From Escherichia phage pEC-N1203-2Af.1, in sequence record OQ540978.1: DNA of 64,000 nt; one strand, written 5' to 3'. The translations under genes and the position numbers were made by a program. The notes under the pieces are model-generated. The model saw nothing but the letters and a program-made list of their open reading frames with translations, was not told where the DNA came from and made no database searches. Of the stretch, positions 5,789-39,033 are shown one piece after another. Position 1 is the stretch's first letter, and each line of letters opens with the position of its first letter.

Positions 5789-6103
5789 ATGGCAGATCAT
5801 GTAGGAAAAAGAGATTATGCGCAAGAAAGACGTACCGCAATTGCCCGTGGTGAGACAGGCGTTGGGAGCAAGAGCGGAGATGCTCAGCGCCACCGTGCAC
5901 GTCGCATCGTTGAAAAGCGCGATGGAAAAGCTGCTGTCAGAGGTAAAGATGTTGGACACAAACGAGCTGTCAAGTCTGGAGGCTCTAATGCGTCAAGCAA
6001 CTTACGTGTTGAATCAGTCAGCTCAAACCGTTCAAACGGCGGCAAAAGTGGTGATCGAGCTGGAAAAGCAGCTGGAGCACGCAAAGGAGCTTTAAGCTCG
6101 TAA
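5789..6103 (+). CDS. highly basic Arg/Gly/Lys/Ser-rich protein
   Basis: AAGGAG RBS 8 nt upstream; codon third positions AT-rich like the rest of the genome, unlike the overlapping frame at 5817. Confidence 0.5.
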   Translation: MADHVGKRDYAQERRTAIARGETGVGSKSGDAQRHRARRIVEKRDGKAAVRGKDVGHKRAVKSGGSNASSNLRVESVSSNRSNGGKSGDRAGKAAGARKGALSS

Positions 6104-6113
6104 AGAGGTTATC

Positions 6114-6407
6114 GTGTCAGCAGAAACAAAAAGATGTACGATTCACACTTACTGTAAATTCTGTAAAGCAGATGGTGTAAAAAGGGTTGCAACTTTAATG
6201 ACCAAGTATTCTCCAAGTAGAGGTTATAGAGATCACTATAAGCATTACTCTTGTAGTGACCATTCTCACTTATTAGAGGATACTGACCCAAACCGAACAA
6301 GAAGGGAGTCTAACATCGACTTGAGAGCTACTCTTAAGGAAATGAAAAACAACTCCCGAAACAACCATTATACTGAAGCTGACTACCAAACTTGGCTTCG
6401 TCTCTAG
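6114..6407 (+). CDS. hypothetical protein
   Basis: 97-aa ORF, GTG start with AGAGG upstream. Confidence 0.4.
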   Translation: MSAETKRCTIHTYCKFCKADGVKRVATLMTKYSPSRGYRDHYKHYSCSDHSHLLEDTDPNRTRRESNIDLRATLKEMKNNSRNNHYTEADYQTWLRL

Positions 6408-28088: not shown

Positions 28089-31000
28089 TTATCTCCGTCC
28101 GCCAACAGCAAACTCTATCGTTAACCCATTGATAGCAGCATTACTGTTAACATCATTATCTATAACATTATAGAAAAGGTATGGATGGTTCAGTCTCACC
28201 GAGACATGCCTGTCAACACCAATCGTATAAGTCTTAGATGTGTGTGGGTGTCCATATTCATTTGAGAATTGACTACCTCCAGCTTCAAAGGTATAAGTGC
28301 CTGAGCCGGTTGTCTGAGGACGGAATCTGTTAATATGCTTCTGATTCCATTCGTTAGTGATGTTATCAAAATCCATACCAGTTCTTTCTAACCTCATCTC
28401 CAGTGGTTTTTCTATAACAACATCATTTAACCTGTCATAGAAATAATCAAGAGCACCTACATCCACTTGGTAGAATCCCCTCAAGAACGAACCTACTATC
28501 GTAACCCTCTGTCTAAAGTTTGTTGCATCCTTTCTCCAAACGAGTTCTTTGATAGATGGGTCATCCCAAGTAATCTCTTGGAAGTCAGACCAGATTGGAC
28601 CTCTCTCTAGAACAGGAGGATCAACCAGACCGATACACTGAGCATAAGGGATAGTACGGAAAGACCAAGTATCAAACTCGTAGTTCCATACAGCAGCTTT
28701 AGTGCAAGCGAAGCTTTCTTTCGGCTCTCCCGGACCTACATAGAGAACCCAAACTTCTTTCTTATCCTGATGCAAGTGTACTCGAGTTGCTAGAGGGTTA
28801 ACCAGACACACCTCATTAATCAGCATGTTCTTAACACGGTTAGATGCAATTGACTTCTTGGTTGCACCATTGTGTAGGATTACATCGTTCTGAGTAACTA
28901 CGAAGTGGCTACCTTCTACTTCAACCACACACTCAGGAGCAAGGATACCGGAGTCGTTAAAAAGTTTCTTGAACATCAGAGGTTGGTATGTGTTATTAGT
29001 AGGAGAACCAATATACGTTTCAAACTCTGTATAAACGAACAAGTAATCTTTAAGAGGTAGGATATCAATCAAGCTACCATTAGAATCCGCCAAGTCAATG
29101 TAACCAGCATATCCATTTTCTAAAGCCTGAGTCTGTCCTACGATGTTAGAAGCCAAGTCCGAAGACACAACTCGATCGTAGGCAAAGTCATCCCACAGTG
29201 TAGGAGCTTTGTTCTCATTAGCAAAGTTAGACCAACGAAGACGAAGTGGATAGTTAGTGGTAACACCAGAAGCATTAGCCTCTCTCATATTCAGAGCAAA
29301 AAGACGGTTGTTAAAAGATCTTACTCTTTCACATTTCCAGTTAAACTTCTTGACTGAAGGGTTTCCATCATTATCAACAACTGTTTGCTCACCCCATCCC
29401 GGAAGATCTACAAAGTATTCTGATTCGAATTCTTTTACCTGAGGGGTTTCATAGTGAGTTGTAGCAACTGCACAGTTAGAGATAACAGCGTGATACCAAG
29501 GGTAGTCATCAAAAGCATCATAATCTTTCTGAGTCATTTGACTGACAGTACATGTTACGTTAATCTCTCCTTTACGAAGAGCAACCAGTTTGATAGATTT
29601 ACCAGTAACTGAAGTTGTAGAAACATAACCTGTCTTATCAACAGACCACTGATAAGAATAATCACCTTCTGGAGAAGCTGTAGCTGTGATAACAATCTCT
29701 TCACCAACATCGAGAGAAGCGCTGACAACATCTAAGGTTACGGATGACAAAGGAGTTGCGAACAAAGAAGCTCTTGCAAAACCTTCAATATCATTTACGT
29801 TAGAATAGTCATAGAAGTTGTTACCTTCGTACATCCCTGACGTATCAATACCAGACGTAGGCTCAGCAAAATAAACCACTTCTTCACTTTCAGTAGGAGT
29901 TACTGCTTCCTCCTCTTGTGATTCAATTGGTTCTGATGCAGGTGCAGCAAATGCCATAGCACTTGTTCTCATCGCCCTTCCAGCTAAGTCTACTCGTACA
30001 GTACAGACAGCAACTCTGTTACCTTCTTCAGTGGTAGCCGTAATCTCAGTAAAGCCAGCAAGTAAAGCATTTACTGTCCCTTGTGTACTGGTCCCTGATA
30101 CTGTTGCAATATTTGGATTAGAAGAAGTCCAAGTAATATTTTGATTAGGGGCGTTAGCAGGAGAAAGGGTAGCAGTTAAGATATACTGAGAACCTCTACT
30201 AACTATCACATCTGACTGACTTAAAGTGATACTGTCAATCTGAGGAATGGAAACAACCTCACAAGAAGCAGTCTTCGTTCCATTATCAGCAGTGATTGTT
30301 ACATTGCCCTCACCATTAGCAGTAATGACTGCCGTTAGAGAATTGGCGTTAGGGGTCACGGATACAATAGAAGCGTTATTGCTGGACCAAGTTACAGGGG
30401 TTTTACCAGTAACAGCTGTAAGAGTGGTAGTCCCTCCTTTACGGATAGTAACAGTATCTTGACTCAAGAAGATGCCTGAATCACCATCTATAATGTTCAC
30501 AGCAATCTGAGCCACTACAGAATCATCAGCAGTAGAGATGGTTACTACAAGATTACCCTCTCTCTCAAAAGATGTTAGAGTAGCAAGTTTAGAATCACTG
30601 GGATCTACTGTAATACTTCCATAAGTTGAATTACTAACCTCCCAAACAAGATCGGTATTGTTAGCATCAGCAGGAAGAAGAGAAACTTCTAGATTCTTAG
30701 TCTGATTGAAGTTCATTGAAATAGTTGATTCTTTTGGAACAATCTGAGAAACAACCGGATAAATCTTAATCGAGGCAGAAGCCTTTTTAGTGACTGTAGC
30801 AACCTTACGGCTAATGTCAGTCAAGCTTTCATCTGTCAGTTTATATAACTTCTTATCCGTACCTACAACAAGAAAGCTATTACCTGCGCTATAATAATCG
30901 AAAGGCATAGATATGAAAGACAGAGGGGTTAAATCCTTATCTTCGTCTACATAAGAAAGAGGGGCATTGCCCCCCGTCTTAAATACTCTCTGCTCAACAA

Positions 31001-31106
31001 ATCGAGCATTTATAGCATTAGTGAAAGCATTAGGAGCTAAGTCTGTCGGAGCCTGATCAGCGATAACGCCTACAGCACCTAACGACTTTATTGGATACAG
31101 CGCCAT
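28089..31106 (-). CDS. large tail protein with Ig-like (BIG2-type) domains
   Basis: 1005 aa; repeated Thr/Ser/Val-rich segments typical of Ig-like domains. Confidence 0.5.
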   Translation of the reverse strand: MALYPIKSLGAVGVIADQAPTDLAPNAFTNAINARFVEQRVFKTGGNAPLSYVDEDKDLTPLSFISMPFDYYSAGNSFLVVGTDKKLYKLTDESLTDISRKVATVTKKASASIKIYPVVSQIVPKESTISMNFNQTKNLEVSLLPADANNTDLVWEVSNSTYGSITVDPSDSKLATLTSFEREGNLVVTISTADDSVVAQIAVNIIDGDSGIFLSQDTVTIRKGGTTTLTAVTGKTPVTWSSNNASIVSVTPNANSLTAVITANGEGNVTITADNGTKTASCEVVSIPQIDSITLSQSDVIVSRGSQYILTATLSPANAPNQNITWTSSNPNIATVSGTSTQGTVNALLAGFTEITATTEEGNRVAVCTVRVDLAGRAMRTSAMAFAAPASEPIESQEEEAVTPTESEEVVYFAEPTSGIDTSGMYEGNNFYDYSNVNDIEGFARASLFATPLSSVTLDVVSASLDVGEEIVITATASPEGDYSYQWSVDKTGYVSTTSVTGKSIKLVALRKGEINVTCTVSQMTQKDYDAFDDYPWYHAVISNCAVATTHYETPQVKEFESEYFVDLPGWGEQTVVDNDGNPSVKKFNWKCERVRSFNNRLFALNMREANASGVTTNYPLRLRWSNFANENKAPTLWDDFAYDRVVSSDLASNIVGQTQALENGYAGYIDLADSNGSLIDILPLKDYLFVYTEFETYIGSPTNNTYQPLMFKKLFNDSGILAPECVVEVEGSHFVVTQNDVILHNGATKKSIASNRVKNMLINEVCLVNPLATRVHLHQDKKEVWVLYVGPGEPKESFACTKAAVWNYEFDTWSFRTIPYAQCIGLVDPPVLERGPIWSDFQEITWDDPSIKELVWRKDATNFRQRVTIVGSFLRGFYQVDVGALDYFYDRLNDVVIEKPLEMRLERTGMDFDNITNEWNQKHINRFRPQTTGSGTYTFEAGGSQFSNEYGHPHTSKTYTIGVDRHVSVRLNHPYLFYNVIDNDVNSNAAINGLTIEFAVGGRR

Positions 31107-31115
31107 AATTCCTCC

Positions 31116-31919
31116 TTAGCTAATACGTCTCCAAATGTGAGCCGCTCTGAATGGTGGCAAAGTGTTAATAGGTTGACGAGAAATGTCATCACGACCAAGA
31201 CTCACACTACCAGAGATTGTATGAGAGTGTGTGTCATTCTCTGTTCTCTGACTATAACCACTACCCGGACTGTACCAGTTAGGTGAGCTGTTATGACCGC
31301 TAGCATCCCCACGACCAAACACCATGTTGTGACTGTGGGTGTTACTGGATAAGGAGAAGCTGGAGCCATTAACTGTCATCAAAGGTACGTTCTCTGTACG
31401 AATGGTATTAAAGACACGACCACCTGTACCGCCTGCTTGGAACTCAACTCTCTGAGCATTAGGAACAGAACCATCAGGGTTTACAACACCAGTACCCATG
31501 ATAACACCAGTCACTTTAGCCCAAGAGCCAAACCCTAAGGAGATAGAATCACCGGGGTTAATATCTTCTTCAGTGATGTAGTAAGAGCCAATTCTATAGA
31601 GCTTATTCTCCATCCAGTTTTTCATGAACGCTTCCATCTGACCTTTAGTAACAACATCTTTGTCACCAGTACCCGGAGTGACGTTCTTAATCATCAGACC
31701 ACCAACATCCATTGCATCACCAGTAAACTTGAGCTTCTCTGACATAATCTTAAAAGTGTCAGAATCAATATCAACTGGTTCTGTGACATTGGGGAATGTG
31801 TTCTGTAGTGTTTGTTTAATGAGGCGGATTTGAGCCGCCCCTTCGTAGATATAATCCCTATCTCTAGGATAGAGCGGGTTTAAATCGGTAACAACTACCG
31901 CATTAGTCTCGATAGCCAA
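31116..31919 (-). CDS. virion structural protein (hypothetical)
   Basis: 267-aa ORF. Confidence 0.45.
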   Translation of the reverse strand: MAIETNAVVVTDLNPLYPRDRDYIYEGAAQIRLIKQTLQNTFPNVTEPVDIDSDTFKIMSEKLKFTGDAMDVGGLMIKNVTPGTGDKDVVTKGQMEAFMKNWMENKLYRIGSYYITEEDINPGDSISLGFGSWAKVTGVIMGTGVVNPDGSVPNAQRVEFQAGGTGGRVFNTIRTENVPLMTVNGSSFSLSSNTHSHNMVFGRGDASGHNSSPNWYSPGSGYSQRTENDTHSHTISGSVSLGRDDISRQPINTLPPFRAAHIWRRIS

Positions 31920-32670: not shown

Positions 32671-32829
32671 TTTAGTATCTCCTATATATTAACCTCTTGG
32701 GATATATTAGTTTCATTACTTACTAAGGGTACTTACTACTAAAGCCCCCGAAGGGGCTTATATTACTTCTCTGATAATTTTGTTTCTAAAGCCTCGACCT
32801 TATAGCAAGACTGAAGGTTATTTGCCAGA

Positions 32830-33039
32830 TTAGTCGGGAAGCGGGATGTTGAAAAGTTCTTCAAACTTTCCCGCGTCACTCAAAGGTTTTGCAGCAATGT
32901 AATAATTCTGCCACTCGACCAGTTTATCCTTATAGTCATCCATGAAACTTGACATTGCAGTACATTCTTGTATTTTAGTTACACACACTGAAAGTCTCAT
33001 TTCAGCTGTTTTAACGTAGTCAATATTTGTATTAATCAT
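32830..33039 (-). CDS. hypothetical protein
   Basis: Start moved to ATG at 33039 (GGAGGGA upstream). Confidence 0.35.
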   Translation of the reverse strand: MINTNIDYVKTAEMRLSVCVTKIQECTAMSSFMDDYKDKLVEWQNYYIAAKPLSDAGKFEELFNIPLPD

Positions 33040-33040
33040 A

Positions 33041-34918
33041 TTACTCCCTCCAAGTAGATTGAATGACGCCGGTTGCACTTAAAAGTACCCACACCACAAT
33101 AGTAGATGAGGACCTATTGTGGATAAACCCAGAGCACCGACTTAGGCCAAGACCCTCGCACTTAACATCCCAATCCGCAGAGTTACCAGCCTCACCAATA
33201 ACTGATAAACTAGGATAGTTAGTGAAAGGTGATGCCCCTTCATCCACAAAATTCCAATTCCAATTTGTAGCAGAGTTAGGGGGGCAGGTTACAGGATAAC
33301 GTCGTGATATAATCTGCCAACCGCGAGTATTGTTCTTAATAATGTTAAGTGACTGACCACCTGTTCCGGAATTGGTAACCTGATAGGCATCCCTAATAGG
33401 TCTATCATAGGATGATGATGTGCCTGTGCGGTTATCAGTGACACGAATAATCGGGATAATTTCTCCATTTTCCGTATAGCGCGTCATAATACTTGAGCCT
33501 ACACGTAGTGCACCGTTGACTCTATACTCACTGGAAACTTCCCCGCCGTAAATACTCACATCAGATGGAGGTACAGTGGTGCCACTATTAATAACAGACC
33601 AAGAAGTATTGGCAGCAGTAAATCCACCAGAGGCGCGGATAATCCAGATGCCACCTGCGTGGTTCGGAGCAAGGGTATTACCCAGCTTGCCGTAGGTGTC
33701 ATTAGATGATGTTGCGCTAAACAATATCTGGTCGCCCTTCTCCGTACCTCCAACGGTTAATGAGCTACCTGAATCCATCACTCCCAGCTTAAAGGCACCA
33801 CTGGCATCCGACGCATCCGCATTCGCACCGTGAGTATAAAAAGTCCCGGTGATATTCGGTGCAGATTGGGGGGCAACGACCCCCGCAACCCCATCAACAG
33901 TCCAATCCGTCGACTTTCCACTTGAGCCTGACAAGAAGATTCGACTCAGAGAATCGGTCTGAACCCCGTTCAAATCAGGAACGCGGAAGTTCGTCGACCC
34001 ATCCCCGGTCGAGTATTTAGCCCTGTGAAGGAACTTAACCCCGACAGCGTTCAGCCAGCCCGTCTCGTCAATAGACATCAACAACCCAGCATCTACAGCC
34101 GCCCACAAGTCAGGGTAATCGGTACGAGTCAATAGTTGACCATCAGCAGCGACATACCCAGCCGGCAACTTGACTCTTGAGCCCTGCCACCACTCCACCG
34201 CACCGATAAAGTTATTCATCACCCCACTCATGGAGGCACCGCCACCACTGCCGCCACTATTTCGGAGTTGTCTCACTGTCACAGCATCGTAGTCCCCAAC
34301 ACCATCTGGTACAGTAACAGGTTGGGTAAAGGTTACTTTCTGGGTGAGTTGTTTGATATCGGAGTTGATACCGGTACGGTTTACACCAATAGTCCGACCT
34401 TTGGAATCTTTGACATAAGAACCAATTGCAGCAAAAGGCAAATCCTCAATCTCTGGACGATATCGTTTAGAATACACAGGGTATTTAGTTTCTACTCCGG
34501 AGTCGTTCTGGTCTACAACCTGAAGACGACCAGCAGAGTGAATCTCTACCCCTTGAACAGAAGAAGCATAGCTACCAATCTTGATTGCGTTGTCAGTAGT
34601 AACCTTCATCATATCAACTGACTCTACACCATTAGCCCCAGCAGAACGGAAAGGGATGTTATTATCTACAAAAGGGTCTGCTTTGAACAAAGCACCTTCC
34701 ATGATAGGTTGAATTGAATCTAATACATAATCTTTAGATGCACCTTCTGTTTTAGTTTGATATACATCAGCCGCTTCTGTTTTCTGCAAGTATTTATCAG
34801 TTAAATTTACAGCTCCAGCAACACCATCTACAGTGGAAACGCCAACAACAGCTGCATCTCTGGAAACAACAACATATGGTTGAAGTATACCAGATTTGGG
34901 CATTAAATCTCTAGACAT
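33041..34918 (-). CDS. tail fibre protein (paralog 2)
   Basis: Shares YPDLW...GDGSTNFRVPD and FTAANTSWSVINS blocks with the 1103-aa fibre. Confidence 0.6.
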   Translation of the reverse strand: MSRDLMPKSGILQPYVVVSRDAAVVGVSTVDGVAGAVNLTDKYLQKTEAADVYQTKTEGASKDYVLDSIQPIMEGALFKADPFVDNNIPFRSAGANGVESVDMMKVTTDNAIKIGSYASSVQGVEIHSAGRLQVVDQNDSGVETKYPVYSKRYRPEIEDLPFAAIGSYVKDSKGRTIGVNRTGINSDIKQLTQKVTFTQPVTVPDGVGDYDAVTVRQLRNSGGSGGGASMSGVMNNFIGAVEWWQGSRVKLPAGYVAADGQLLTRTDYPDLWAAVDAGLLMSIDETGWLNAVGVKFLHRAKYSTGDGSTNFRVPDLNGVQTDSLSRIFLSGSSGKSTDWTVDGVAGVVAPQSAPNITGTFYTHGANADASDASGAFKLGVMDSGSSLTVGGTEKGDQILFSATSSNDTYGKLGNTLAPNHAGGIWIIRASGGFTAANTSWSVINSGTTVPPSDVSIYGGEVSSEYRVNGALRVGSSIMTRYTENGEIIPIIRVTDNRTGTSSSYDRPIRDAYQVTNSGTGGQSLNIIKNNTRGWQIISRRYPVTCPPNSATNWNWNFVDEGASPFTNYPSLSVIGEAGNSADWDVKCEGLGLSRCSGFIHNRSSSTIVVWVLLSATGVIQSTWRE

Positions 34919-34959
34919 TTAAATCTCCTTAAAGCTCCCCGAAGGGAGCATTATTTATA

Positions 34960-37900
34960 TTACCGTGCTCTTAATTCATTTACTTCTTTCTCAAGAGCTT
35001 CTATTCTATCTAACAAAACTAAGAGGACTTCGTGATGCAGTGCAGCAGCTACCCCATAGGTGTCTACAGACTTAACATCTTTCACAATAGTTCCATCTTT
35101 CAATTCAGTGTCTGAATATTGGAGAGCCTTAACAGCGTCAGGGAAAACCTTCTCCACATCTTGCGCAAGGAAGCCAATACCATTAGGTTTAGGAAGTTTA
35201 TCAAGACGTTCCCAAGTAACCCCTTTGATAGCCTTAAGTTTTTCAATGGGATTCTCAATACGCTTGATGTTAGTTTTAAGTCTTTCGTCTGAAGTGCTTG
35301 ACCAGTTCCCTGCTTGAGCGGTTCCGTCCGGCATGAACTTAAAATCAGCTGCTACACCTTGACCGTTGTTTACCGCAATCTGAGCATGAATCAGGTCTGT
35401 ACCAGTACCACGAACGCCACCAAGAGTGTAACTACCATCATACCAATCTCCAGAGAAATAAGAAACATATCCAGGAGTGGTTTGATTGAAGTTAATCATC
35501 CTCATACCGTTCCTCTCACTGGCTGCTACACCAACAGAGGCGTTAGCTCTGACCAGCAAGTCAGTGGGTCTTAGGTATGCATCAATTGTTAGTGCCCCAT
35601 CAGGTCTTTCTGTGCCAAGCTGAGATACTGCATTAGGAAGAACTAACGTTCCAGCATTATTGAATTTCCACTCCTGAGACCCGTTTAAGATTTTAGCTCC
35701 AGATGTTCCGGAGGCTCCGTCAATTTGCCCATAAGCAGATAAGGTTGCTGAGTAAGTTAGGTCGGTCCCTATTTTATACTCAGAGCGGACTAAACCACCA
35801 GACACCGTAAACCCAGTAGAAGGTTTGGTTGCATCGGAGTTAATAACAGACCAAGATGTATTAGCAGCAGTAAATCCACCATTAGCACGAATTACCCAGA
35901 CACCGGTGAAGCTGTTGGTGCGGACTTCGGTCGTGTTGTCGCGCCCATAAACAGAACTGGAAATGGAAGCATCAAGCGTTACAGATGCTGCTGCCGTGTT
36001 GAGGCCAGAATCCGCTGAAACGTTGGGGCGCCTTTTATCCTGCGCCCCCGCTTGCATAGCACCAGTGGCCGAGCCAATCACACCATAGTTGAAATCGTTC
36101 ACCAGAGTGACAAATTCGCCTACGATGTTTGGCGCGGCGCTGCGGAATATTTTACCGTTATTGCTCGATACACCACCGTCACCGCGAGCATACAGACCAG
36201 AGATAGACCCACTTTGGACACCATTTCGGTCCGGGACACGGAAAGTAGTAGAACCATCCCCCAGTGAATATTTACCCCTTTGTTGGGGGTCAGCCAGCCA
36301 AGCAGCATCTGTGATAGGGGATAATGCTTGAGCATAAGCCCACAGATCTGGATATGCCGTACGAGATAATAATTGACCGTCAGAAGTTACGTCATTAGAG
36401 TGAATAAGAGCACGACTGTCTACTAAACGGAAATCGCCAATATTGAAATTAGAGACACCGTTCAAGCTAGCCCCACCACCGCCACCCCCTTGGTTTCTTA
36501 ACTGACGTAAGGTAACAGCATCCAGATCACTTACAGCATCTCCACCCAGTCGAGTAGGGCCAACCAAACCCTCAAGCTTAGTGATATCCCCGTTAACCCC
36601 AGCAGAGGTTATAGCAGCAGCCCCTATTTCAGCAGGAGTTGGTTTATTAGCCTCAGTGTAAAACTTCTTCTCTCCCGAATCGTTTACATAAACAGGGACA
36701 TCAGAAGATAAGATTTTAGCTTTAACTGTATCACTACCGAGAAGAACGGAACCATCAGTTGCAACAGTTGCTATATTAATAGATGTTCCAGAACTCGCGG
36801 TACCCGTTAACACAATACCAGAGCTGAGATTTAGATGGCCTGTCATCTTACCACCAGTAGTAGGAAGGGCACCTACATCTGATGCTGTGACTGTAACATT
36901 ACCTGTTGCTTCATTAGGGATCTTACCGTTAACAGCAACAACATAAGGAACCTGAGAAAGAGGTCTTCCATCATACTGAGTGTCATTTGTTTTACTTGGA
37001 GATCTAATTGCCTCACCACCTGTCCAATCGGGAAGTCGAATATTGATAAAATTTGTTGAATCCGCATCAGTAACCCCATCAGCCAATTTGCCCCAAGAGA
37101 AATACTGTTTAGCTCCAGCTTGCCACGCAGTTTCAGAAACAACAGGAAGTTGACCACTGACAAGAGATGGACCTAAATCAGCAGCGTTATCTTTAGACAC
37201 TAAACGACCATCAGCTGGAAGAACACCCGGATATGACACCTGTTTGGCTGGGTCATAAGGGAACATTAACATCTCACCCAAATACAAAGATGGGTTACCG
37301 GTAGGTATTGTAATATCAATATTACCAGTAGAATCTGGAACTCGAGAGTTTACTGTAACAATCCTATTTTCTGTTTTAGAAAGAGTTAGTGTTTTATCAG
37401 CAGCTACAGTGTAGAAGACGTATTTATAATCCTCCCAAACTAGGATGTTTTCACCAACCTTTCGGTTAACTGCATCAGCATCCGCAGCAGCTTTGGTTCT
37501 GTAGGTTTTAACATACCCATCCACTTTACCATCAACTTGAGAGATACTATAAGAGGCTACGTTAACTACATTATTAAGACCTACAGTAGTTTTGTCTAGG
37601 ACCAGATTAACTTCGCCATCAGCAGGTGTTCCACCGTTGACAGAAACAGAACGAACAGATGGGATTAAGTTAGCGATGTTCTCTAGAGTAGTTTTGTGGA
37701 CAGTGTTGTCATCTTTGTCAACATAGAAACCTAAGTCACCTAACTCTGGAACACCGGTAGGTGCTGTATCTAAATCCTTAACAGAACCATCCTTTCCGGG
37801 ATCACCTTCTGGAATACCTAAAGAGATTACACCAGTGGTCGGATTAAAAGAACCAGTAGCTTGACTCCCCGGAGGAAGGGTAGTTACATCAACAGACATT

Positions 37901-38271
37901 CCCAACAGAACATCAAGCTGTTTCTGGACTTCAATGAGCTTCTGATTAATGAGAGCAACAGCGTTATTAGCATCAGAGACTGCTGCGTTAGTTTGAGCAA
38001 CCAAGCTCATCAGACGAGCATCTTGATCTATAAAATCCTGCTTAAGATCTTCAATGTCTTGCTTCATCAGAACACCTTGTTGATACAGACGTTCTACTTC
38101 AGCGATCAAGTCATCAATTGTACCAAACTTAGATTCCGCTAGCAGTGCCCAATATTTAGAATCAGCTGCATATTCTGCTGCTTGCTTGTAAGCTCCGATA
38201 GAGCCTTCAGTAGCACCAAACTGCCCAACATTATTCACTGCATCAGGTGCTTGGTTATTATAAACGATCAT
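34960..38271 (-). CDS. tail fibre protein with C-terminal intramolecular chaperone (peptidase S74-like)
   Basis: C-terminal SDERLKTNIKRIEN...GVTWERLDK matches the S74 auto-cleaving chaperone motif; tail-collar-like GDGSTTFRVPD. Confidence 0.65.
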   Translation of the reverse strand: MIVYNNQAPDAVNNVGQFGATEGSIGAYKQAAEYAADSKYWALLAESKFGTIDDLIAEVERLYQQGVLMKQDIEDLKQDFIDQDARLMSLVAQTNAAVSDANNAVALINQKLIEVQKQLDVLLGMSVDVTTLPPGSQATGSFNPTTGVISLGIPEGDPGKDGSVKDLDTAPTGVPELGDLGFYVDKDDNTVHKTTLENIANLIPSVRSVSVNGGTPADGEVNLVLDKTTVGLNNVVNVASYSISQVDGKVDGYVKTYRTKAAADADAVNRKVGENILVWEDYKYVFYTVAADKTLTLSKTENRIVTVNSRVPDSTGNIDITIPTGNPSLYLGEMLMFPYDPAKQVSYPGVLPADGRLVSKDNAADLGPSLVSGQLPVVSETAWQAGAKQYFSWGKLADGVTDADSTNFINIRLPDWTGGEAIRSPSKTNDTQYDGRPLSQVPYVVAVNGKIPNEATGNVTVTASDVGALPTTGGKMTGHLNLSSGIVLTGTASSGTSINIATVATDGSVLLGSDTVKAKILSSDVPVYVNDSGEKKFYTEANKPTPAEIGAAAITSAGVNGDITKLEGLVGPTRLGGDAVSDLDAVTLRQLRNQGGGGGGASLNGVSNFNIGDFRLVDSRALIHSNDVTSDGQLLSRTAYPDLWAYAQALSPITDAAWLADPQQRGKYSLGDGSTTFRVPDRNGVQSGSISGLYARGDGGVSSNNGKIFRSAAPNIVGEFVTLVNDFNYGVIGSATGAMQAGAQDKRRPNVSADSGLNTAAASVTLDASISSSVYGRDNTTEVRTNSFTGVWVIRANGGFTAANTSWSVINSDATKPSTGFTVSGGLVRSEYKIGTDLTYSATLSAYGQIDGASGTSGAKILNGSQEWKFNNAGTLVLPNAVSQLGTERPDGALTIDAYLRPTDLLVRANASVGVAASERNGMRMINFNQTTPGYVSYFSGDWYDGSYTLGGVRGTGTDLIHAQIAVNNGQGVAADFKFMPDGTAQAGNWSSTSDERLKTNIKRIENPIEKLKAIKGVTWERLDKLPKPNGIGFLAQDVEKVFPDAVKALQYSDTELKDGTIVKDVKSVDTYGVAAALHHEVLLVLLDRIEALEKEVNELRAR

Positions 38272-38280
38272 ATTATCTCC

Positions 38281-39033
38281 TTATACACGAGAAGTACGAA
38301 TACCATAAATATCAGGCAGGCTGCTCTGAAGTCGAGTCATGTTATTCGGAATTGCGATAGGTGAACCTGAGTACTCTTGCTTCTTATTCTGCTCTACCAT
38401 TTCATCAAGGATAGCTTTTCCTAATGCTGACCATTTCTGAACTCCATTATCATCTTGAACAAACAAGCAAGCATGACGTAGAGTGAAATACAGAAGAAGT
38501 TCTGGTGCAATAGTAAGGATAGCACTGGTATCTGTATCTTCATGGAACTCCGGTGGGTCTGCATAATAACTAAGAATGACTGAGTTTTCTGCTGGAATCA
38601 AAGGACTTCCATCATCAGGATAAACAGGAGTATCTGCTTCAATGCTAGGGTAGAAAATGAAACGACTACCGAAACGAGCAAAGTTAACAGGTTGGTTATT
38701 CCAGTGAGATGGGTTAATTGTTCCATGCTGTCTACGATAGCTAATCTCTTCAGGAGATGTTACTTGGAAGATTGTACCATCTTTGGCTCTCATCATCCAT
38801 TGAGCTTCTAAGTAATCAGGAGGAATGTAAGCTACTCCATCTTTAATATCTAAATACACTTCTTTTTCCAGAGGAGGAATACGTAAGTTACGATAAATCT
38901 CTTTCTCTGCAAAGTTAATAAAGTTTGGAATTTGATTAACAAATTCGTCATCGTCCCTATCTGCCCAGAGGGCCACGGCCTTCTTTAGCCACCCATAGGT
39001 ATTGATGGGGTATTGAACATCTGGCATCGCCAT
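38281..39033 (-). CDS. virion structural protein (hypothetical)
   Basis: 250-aa ORF preceded by terminator and TAATGTATA motif. Confidence 0.45.
   Translation of the reverse strand: MAMPDVQYPINTYGWLKKAVALWADRDDDEFVNQIPNFINFAEKEIYRNLRIPPLEKEVYLDIKDGVAYIPPDYLEAQWMMRAKDGTIFQVTSPEEISYRRQHGTINPSHWNNQPVNFARFGSRFIFYPSIEADTPVYPDDGSPLIPAENSVILSYYADPPEFHEDTDTSAILTIAPELLLYFTLRHACLFVQDDNGVQKWSALGKAILDEMVEQNKKQEYSGSPIAIPNNMTRLQSSLPDIYGIRTSRV

Follow-up and report, generated by a model that had tools for sequence, protein, structure and literature searches.

The long tail fibre of the kuravirus SU10 consists of a trimer of gp12 (proximal), whose first ~90 residues are docked on the adaptor, and a trimer of gp13 (distal) (PMC9509320). 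The L-shaped branched fibre of the siphoviruses DT57C and DT571/2 is composed of LtfA and LtfB (PDB 8hqz): LtfA residues 223-471 are homologous to residues 239-508 of phiEco32 gp14, the first 45 residues of LtfB are homologous to the N-terminus of phiEco32 gp15, and the function of LtfB genetically requires LtfA, regardless of LtfA's own receptor domain (PMC4728585). The same study cited unpublished cryo-electron microscopy of a branched gp14-gp15 fibre and inferred contacts between LtfA and LtfB and between gp14 and gp15. "T-shaped" fibres that carry a Gp12-like receptor-binding domain (RBD1), a T5-like second domain (RBD2) and an intramolecular chaperone (IMC) have been described in Gordonclarkvirinae, Wifcevirus and some Tequintavirus phages (BASEL completion paper), and gp13 of EP335, a kuravirus-like distal fibre, was verified by mass spectrometry to cleave itself at S621|D622, with GFP-gp13 binding O157 and O26 cells (PMC8217332). 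The two-gene kuravirus fibre, the LtfA/LtfB precedent, the T-shaped module and the self-cleavage of EP335 gp13 are already known. Here we analyze a fibre locus in a 64,000-nt window, the whole stretch of DNA under study, from Escherichia phage pEC-N1203-2Af.1 (OQ540978.1). All coordinates are those of the whole window, and the features of the fibre locus lie on its minus strand. The locus encodes F1, a long tail fibre trunk subunit (34960-38271; 1103 aa, 116.2 kDa), F2, a branch or distal subunit (33041-34918; 625 aa, 66.4 kDa), and a small open reading frame (ORF) downstream of F2 (32830-33039; 69 aa, 8.0 kDa, pI 4.6), a candidate trans-acting fibre assembly factor. We posit, with a probability of roughly 70%, that these genes specify one composite branched Kuravirus long tail fibre with an S74-cleaved F1 trunk, an F2 side branch and a small-ORF product that helps the F2 tip in trans.

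In our model, F1 trimers would form the trunk, with residues 1-235 docking on the adaptor ring and with the lateral docking site for the N-terminus of F2 in residues 236-470, where a cryptic collar-type domain is also found. The trunk would run on into its own gp12-like domain and a tip resembling that of EP335 gp13; the S74 chaperone would fold this tip and then cut itself off at S994|D995, converting a 116-kDa chain into products of 104 and 12 kDa. F2 trimers would join F1 through a conserved LtfB/gp15-type N-terminus and present a second, divergent gp12-like domain together with a different, possibly lectin-like tip. F2 has lost S74, and its tip would probably be folded or trimerised in trans by the helical 69-aa protein whose translation is coupled to that of F2. 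The 3' parts of both genes would have been swapped by recombination at conserved junction tracts.

The genomic context of the locus is that of a kuravirus. Kuravirus XT18 is ~95% identical to the flanking 24.7 kb, over 85% of the query, and the order of genes (adaptor, fibre 1, fibre 2, holin, endolysin, short fibre, and nozzle) is the same as in SU10, MN05, YF01 and others. The adaptor gene (38281-39033; SU10_adaptor Pfam match) lies directly upstream of F1. Residues 1-500 of F1 match the SU10 "putative tail fiber" chain (PDB 7z47_D; E = 5e-251), and residues 1-468 are 82% identical to gp12. F1 also matches phrog_10305 (tail fiber), and F2 matches phrog_6921 over residues 1-505. These comparisons identify F1 as the orthologue of SU10 gp12 and phiEco32 gp14, and F2 as the orthologue of SU10 gp13, phiEco32 gp15 and DT57C LtfB, but without an S74 domain. 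Because they are orthologues of gp12 and gp13, F1 and F2 are assigned to one fibre as its two subunits.

A first-pass annotation of this DNA had described F1 and F2 as paralogous tail fibres that share a core and may differ in receptor specificity. Both ORFs are present as described, on the minus strand, both are tail-fibre proteins, and their cores are homologous: BLASTP aligns F1 497-834 with F2 100-467 at 39% identity (E = 2e-45), and the motifs quoted in support are all in register, namely VTLRQLRN at residue 586 of F1 and VTVRQLRN at 213 of F2, YPDLW (640 and 268), GDGSTTFRVPD (671) and GDGSTNFRVPD (305), and FTAANTSWSVINS (800 and 433). The term "paralogous" is nevertheless misleading if it implies local duplication. 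The best-conserved part of the core, F1 571-835 against F2 199-468, is 43% identical over ~265 aa, whereas the F1 core is 55-60% identical to the cores of EK010, PAS59, LAMP, PGN6866 and both LtfA and LtfB of DT57C, and dozens of foreign cores (57-60% identity) are closer to it than F2 is. Recent tandem duplication of the core is ruled out, given that each core is closer to cores of other phages and that a single 61-nt tract is the sole nucleotide repeat. On this comparison, the two cores are best described as shuffled alleles of a widespread module. Three points were absent from the first-pass annotation: F1 is an atypical trunk with a full distal-type module, F2 has lost S74 and left a stub of it downstream, and a small ORF is coupled to F2.

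We mapped the segments of F1 and F2 by local BLAST against other phage fibres. The virion anchor of F1 (aa 1-235; 37567-38271) is 92-94% identical to the proximal subunits of SU10, YF01 and MN05 and, at 93% identity to SU10 gp12, is an adaptor-docking N-terminus of the gp12 type. The conserved region that follows (aa 236-470; 36862-37566) shares 72-76% identity with every kuravirus proximal subunit; its residues 246-464 are 46% identical to DT57C LtfA 230-445 (E = 5e-52). A cryptic, divergent collar-type domain lies within it at ~aa 340-420 (36979-37368, corresponding to ~aa 302-431), as detected only by hhalign, against the RBD1 collar, with a probability of 96.4% and an E-value of 1.2e-9; the locus contains three collar-type domains rather than two. 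This domain is kept in all proximal subunits examined and in DT57C LtfA. F1 departs from the standard proximal subunits at a shaft linker (aa 471-570; 36562-36861) whose only matches, at ~40% identity, are to the long first-fibre proteins of PAS59, EK010 and LAMP; nucleotide homology to standard kuraviruses is lost at approximately aa 425-475 and regained exactly at the stop codon. The linker leads into the gp12-like/collar core, or RBD1 (aa 571-835; 35767-36561), which is shared with F2 and aligns with PDB 8hqz_d, and then into the distal tip (aa 836-994; 35290-35766), a second candidate receptor-binding domain that is 53% identical to the distal fibre of PGN6866. A sequence search against the PDB detected no relation between the F1 tip and that of T5 pb1. 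In the same database, F1 236-898 is collinear with DT57C LtfA 227-889 (E = 6e-128).

The C-terminal half of F1 is what makes it an atypical trunk. Standard proximal subunits, including those of SU10 (786 aa), MN05 (926 aa) and Bas93 (852 aa), end in Phage_tail_C_2 (PF25670; E = 1e-57 to 1e-60), with the terminal residues VRVEMPSK. Pfam detects no PF25670 end in F1, which carries Collar and S74 in its place, as do PAS59 "RBP1" (1073 aa), EK010 (1073 aa) and LAMP gp14 (1068 aa). The Collar model (PF07484) matches F2 with 34.4 bits against a cut-off of 24 (E = 2.2e-8) and the F1 core with 21 bits, just under it. These alignments indicate that the usual PF25670 end has been replaced in F1 by a gp12-like domain with a tip and chaperone that resemble those of EP335 gp13. 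In an exhaustive HMMER search, the protein clusters P0007 (1080 aa; F1 1-904) and P0018 (1154 aa; F1 3-1047) match most of F1, and the core-tip-IMC module (F1 570-1101) is widespread in other contexts, with 5242 matches at E <= 1e-3, 289 of them at E <= 1e-30. F1 571-1103 has the composition of the T-shaped fibres, that is, a Gp12-like RBD1, a tip and an IMC, but the BASEL authors place this module on the distal subunit, whereas here it is on the trunk. PAS59, EK010 and LAMP have long first fibres of the same architecture as F1, with the anchor, conserved region, collar core, tip and S74 (PAS59 is 65% identical over 1-853); they differ in that their second fibres keep S74 and in that the tip and IMC of F1 are a PGN6866/EP335-type allele.

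The chaperone at the end of F1 (aa 995-1103 and stop; 34960-35289) belongs to Peptidase_S74 (PF13884), which Pfam matches at F1 994-1048 with 54.6 bits against a cut-off of 22 (E = 1.3e-14); no S74 match is found by Pfam in F2. The SDERLK motif, which the first-pass annotation had read as the mark of a self-cleaving chaperone in the larger protein, is confined to F1, at residue 994, and the domain is a genuine S74 IMC. Ser994 and Lys999 (S-x4-K), the putative catalytic residues, are invariant across seven aligned IMC domains, and the 109 aa after S994 form the extreme C-terminus of F1, in line with an IMC of ~110 aa. A profile built from this alignment matches the solved domains of DT57C LtfA (8hqz_d; 2e-16), S16 gp37 (6f45; 1e-12), MYRF (7dc3; 2e-10) and the GA-1 neck appendage (3gud; 0.0065). 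The F1 IMC (aa 994-1103) is 60% identical to that of the PAS59 distal fibre and 53% identical to that of PGN6866. F1 834-1103 is 52% identical to EP335 gp13 460-727 (E = 4e-89), with the TSDER(L/I)K motif and the chaperone in register and S994|D995 of F1 aligned exactly with S621|D622 of gp13. By analogy with EP335, F1 is predicted to cleave itself between S994 and D995, with computed products of 103.9 kDa and 12.3 kDa. We do not extend the analogy to receptor specificity, which is not transferable at only 52% identity, and EP335 bears the module on its second (distal) gene, unlike the first (trunk) gene here.

F2 begins with a conserved N-terminal docking element (aa 1-100; 34619-34918) that is 75-86% identical to all kuravirus distal subunits and evolves under a ratio of nonsynonymous to synonymous substitution rates (dN/dS) of 0.07-0.15; residues 1-45 are 76% identical to DT57C LtfB 1-45 (E = 1e-17). 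A shaft (aa 101-198), 88-99% identical to kuravirus distal subunits, leads into the gp12-like/collar core (aa 199-468; 33515-34324), a divergent allele that is 91% identical to that of MN05 and 40-49% identical to all other cores. The distal fibre of MN05 is 88.5% identical to F2 over residues 1-480, and SU10 gp13 is 62% identical over F2 1-465. Beyond this point the C-terminal tip (aa 469-625 and stop; 33041-33514) is rare, being 78% identical to that of Bas93 and 40-44% identical to lambdoid side fibres, and Bas93_0009 is the only end-to-end match to F2 in the phage collection (66.6%). Whereas SU10 gp13 ends in a tip and S74, F2 ends in an unrelated tip that is followed by the 69-aa ORF. The tip is likewise unrelated to those of PGN6866 and EP335, and although F2 has a Gp12-like RBD1 as in the T-shaped fibres, it lacks their T5-like RBD2 and IMC; its tip is of the type that the BASEL authors set aside in Bas93.

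The F2 tip is not readily found by direct searches. It has no match in Pfam or PHROG, even at E-values up to 10, a word-indexed search with the tip alone returned no homologue among 5.8 billion protein clusters, and a profile of five tip sequences matched no more than two distant Pantoea-type proteins. It was by examining the genes next to small-ORF homologues that closer relatives came to light; F2 439-620, for example, is 43% identical to residues 278-457 of the fibre encoded next to one such homologue (contig L007; E = 1.6e-43). An AF2 monomer model of the tip, based on three sequences, has a pLDDT of 49 overall and of 57-76 in a predicted sandwich, with the first 87 residues unstructured, and the modelled monomer is probably part of an intertwined trimer. 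Foldseek comparison of the model with BFVD gave weak, scattered matches, the few compact ones including an H-type lectin domain. From this model we tentatively suggest that the last ~95 aa of F2 form a beta-sandwich resembling the lectin-fold foot of R-pyocin fibres. Given its presence at the end of lambdoid side fibres as well, the alignments identify the F2 terminus as a conserved 180-aa domain rather than a truncation.

The small ORF appears to be translationally coupled to F2: its ATG lies 1 nt past the F2 TAA and a GGAGG sequence is inside the last F2 codons. The mechanical ORF call (82 aa, GTG start) is too long. Its product is 86% identical to Bas93_0010 and 40-54% identical to more distant homologues. 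Homologues are found directly after fibres with an F2-type tip in four lineages, represented by Bas93, L007/L008, L012 and L015/L016. In the lambdoid contigs L007 and L008, the homologue (6001-6222) follows a 458-aa fibre gene beside gpJ-type tail-tip genes, and in the Pantoea-type lambdoid contigs L015 (5864-6151) and L016 (5849-6130) it follows a 283-288-aa fibre gene, in both cases with a 4-nt stop overlap; in L012 (808-1029) it follows a fibre gene cut by the contig end, and the homologue in L003 is at 5880-6089. The family comprises proteins of 69-95 aa without annotation from kuraviruses and from lambdoid siphophage or prophage contigs of E. coli-type and Pantoea-type sources. The order of modules is reversed in L012 (logan:ERR11042406, 4190 nt), where the F2-type tip and small ORF come first and a 737-aa LtfB-like S74 fibre second, so the same modules can sit on either subunit. 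The small ORF has a dN/dS of 0.13, and its product is predicted to form one long helix (residues 8-55; pLDDT 85).

By analogy, the small ORF would be Tfa-like only in its position, its coupling and its co-transfer with the tip; unlike the R-type pyocin pair PA0620/PA0621 and lambdoid Stf/Tfa, to which there is no sequence similarity, it belongs to a family of proteins of only 69-95 aa, and its product is predicted as a single long helix. The alternative that it is a detached piece of S74, making a split IMC with F2, is ruled out by an hhalign probability of 0.2%. We consider it an evenly balanced proposition that these helical proteins are undescribed minimal trans-acting trimerisation chaperones, or tip-bound caps, that move between podophages and lambdoid siphophages in a cassette of two genes, together with the putative lectin-like receptor-binding tip. 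If this proposition is true, the locus would have caught in the act a switch from intramolecular to intermolecular folding within one fibre gene, with S74 displaced and 13 of its codons left.

Both edges of the exchange in F2 can be located. The edge between core and tip coincides with a 61-nt junction tract encoding GGFTAANTSWSVIN (33588-33648, with the F1 copy at 35840-35900), the sole strong direct repeat between the two genes, whose copies are 85% identical with a near-perfect core of ~40 nt. MN05 homology in F2 stops at 33567 and Bas93 homology starts at 33646, which places the crossover that installed the F2 tip inside this tract. An SWSVI(N/K) motif also opens the homologous tip in lambdoid side fibres, and we interpret the FTAANTSWSVINS motif, which the first-pass annotation had listed as part of the conserved core, as a module junction and recombination tract on the basis of these alignments. 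Beyond the small ORF, a non-coding stub (32763-32801) preserves the 13 terminal codons of an IMC (YKVEALETKLSEK*), in register with the S74 end of standard distal fibres; from these codons (KKVEVLEAKLSEK* in MN05) through a terminator-like hairpin to the holin gene, 32801-32640 is 95% nucleotide-identical to MN05. Given the stub, we conclude that the tip and small-ORF cassette replaced an ancestral tip and S74. The stub also marks the right-hand boundary of the replacement.

A natural LtfA-B fusion, the phage DT530 "tail fiber protein AB" (KU236381.1; H144), is found in a relative of DT57C and is 56.5% identical to the F1 core. Deletion between the two cores gave rise to LtfA-B fusions (PMC4728585), and the 61-nt tract shared by F1 and F2 could permit a like event in the window.

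Two stable UUCG-tetraloop hairpins flank F2. The first (GCTCCCTTCGGGGAGC; 34934-34949; -12.5 kcal/mol, z -2.2) occupies the F1-F2 spacer, ahead of TTT and of AAGGAG, the ribosome-binding site of F2; it is identical to that of SU10 and does not vary among eight Gordonclarkvirinae genomes, whatever the fibre type, and a comparable hairpin separates ltfA from ltfB in DT57C. The second (32742-32759; -12.6 kcal/mol) follows the fibre locus upstream of the holin gene and is common to MN05, SU10, YF01, LAMP and EK010. Possible roles of the F1-F2 hairpin are attenuation, RNA stability and control of the expression ratio. Scans for promoters and terminators did not rise above background, and both hairpins are noted for their conservation only.

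How the two subunits are joined is the point on which the branched model depends. Both elements implicated in branching are kept, namely the region of F1 that resembles LtfA 223-471 and the LtfB-type N-terminus of F2. BLAST finds no similarity between F2 and the F1 1-235 anchor, and F2 has no virion-anchoring N-terminus of its own. With both elements kept, the F1 end being a receptor-type cleavable tip and F2 being anchorless, lateral docking of F2 on F1 236-470 is the most economical arrangement. Within F1, the likeness to DT57C covers the putative contact site for LtfB, a second collar-type domain and the gp12-like core, and it extends to a first subunit with its own tip and S74; the two systems differ in that LtfA is anchored by a T5-type N-terminus with LtfC and F1 by the kuravirus adaptor, in that LtfB has its own S74 and F2 none, and in that DT57C is a siphovirus and the present phage a C3 podovirus.

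Several considerations weigh against this model. No structure of a gp12-gp13 or LtfA-LtfB junction is known, the source for a branched phiEco32 fibre is a personal communication quoted in PMC4728585, and the account of SU10 mentions proximal and distal parts with one elbow only (PMC9509320). Another possible location of the docking site is the C-terminal PF25670 domain, which is absent from F1; DT57C LtfA, PAS59, EK010 and LAMP, however, are also without PF25670, yet their second fibres are intact. The small ORF matches no Tfa family or other family, with Pfam and PHROG searches empty even at E-values up to 10, and little can be concluded about its role from one predicted helix. Owing to the low-confidence model of the tip, the lectin fold is a tentative assignment, and receptor binding in this phage is something we infer.

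The description of SU10, with gp12 named "proximal" and gp13 "distal" in a 700-A fibre that has one elbow between segments of 300 A and 400 A (PMC9509320), is consistent with an unbranched, T4 gp34-gp37-like fibre in which F2 would be placed end to end on F1 and only the domains of F2 would be exposed at the tip, and the annotation of YF01 uses the proximal and distal names as well. We consider such a serial fibre unlikely. Distally, F1 ends in a receptor-type tip and a predicted self-cleaving S74, homologous to the free tip of EP335 gp13 and with no conserved docking surface; end-to-end docking is implausible on an F1 that ends in a cleavable tip. All first subunits, with a PF25670 end or an S74 end alike, have aa 236-470 in common rather than the C-terminus, and DT57C genetics shows that the tips of both LtfA and LtfB recognise receptors (PMC4728585).

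It is more improbable still that F1 and F2 attach separately as two independent sets of fibres, each a receptor-binding protein in its own right, which was the reading of the first-pass annotation. The divergent cores, the different tips and the presence of receptor-binding-type domains in each protein would fit that reading, and the corresponding pair in PAS59 is annotated as RBP1 and RBP2. Yet F2 resembles nothing in the adaptor-binding N-terminus of F1; the six long-fibre sites of the SU10 adaptor hold gp12, and the short fibres of its nozzle are a different protein, gp16 (PMC9509320), with a counterpart here at 31116-31919; and LtfB, with the same N-terminus as F2, depends on LtfA (PMC4728585). 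Two receptor specificities are compatible with the divergent cores and unrelated tips, but as orthologues of gp12 and gp13 the proteins are not two separate fibres.

We regard it as highly improbable that F2 is a redundant, decaying remnant that became dispensable when F1, which by itself comprises the anchor, a gp12-like domain, a tip and the chaperone, acquired a full distal-type module, for although F2 is without S74, an IMC stub lies downstream, and the BASEL authors describe the loss of S74 in Bas93 as a truncation, the F2 ORF is intact, the supposedly truncated end is the conserved 180-aa domain that lambdoid side fibres also carry, always with the small ORF, and Bas93, with the same F2 type and a standard first fibre, is a viable isolate. 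The dN/dS values (0.07-0.35 across all F2 segments, 0.20 in the tip) indicate that the F2 segments, the tip and the small ORF are maintained by selection, and they rule out a pseudogene-like remnant.

Taken as one branched fibre with a helper gene, the locus combines its modules in a way that we found in no other record of the phage collection. Databases include long first fibres from PAS59, EK010 and LAMP, and we found no discussion of them; no record in the phage collection combines an S74-bearing trunk with an S74-less cassette branch. What is new is this combination, the evidence of a swap provided by the stub and the crossover tract, and the recognition of the tip and small ORF as a conserved mobile unit and not a truncation. 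Kuraviruses are common, broadly infective and restriction-resistant, and are candidates for therapy and biocontrol whose host range is set by the long tail fibre. The locus suggests that a full dual-domain receptor module can reside on the trunk subunit itself, with up to four candidate glycan-binding modules per fibre, and that the self-cleaving S74 chaperone may be replaceable by a tip with its own tiny helper gene. The short conserved tract of tip exchange could be a ready-made splice point for engineering, and transplants of the F2 tip would probably require the 69-aa ORF to be moved along. The locus refines the branched-fibre model and flags an uncharacterised protein family; it does not overturn current understanding.

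The public annotation of two other ORFs in the window could mislead counts of receptor-binding proteins. A 1005-aa ORF with Big_2 domains (28089-31106, minus strand) matches phrog_14417 over its full length and occupies the position of the SU10 nozzle, gp17, and a 267-aa ORF with a Gp10_C domain (31116-31919, minus strand) is the counterpart of the SU10 short tail fibre, gp16; in public records the nozzle and short-fibre ORFs are labelled variously as "tail fiber" or "host specificity". A lone tRNA-Arg gene (anticodon TCT) lies at 58867-58941 on the plus strand. The sign of the GC skew flips at ~16 kb and ~48 kb, with strand switches nearby, in keeping with the division of kuravirus genomes into divergently transcribed blocks.

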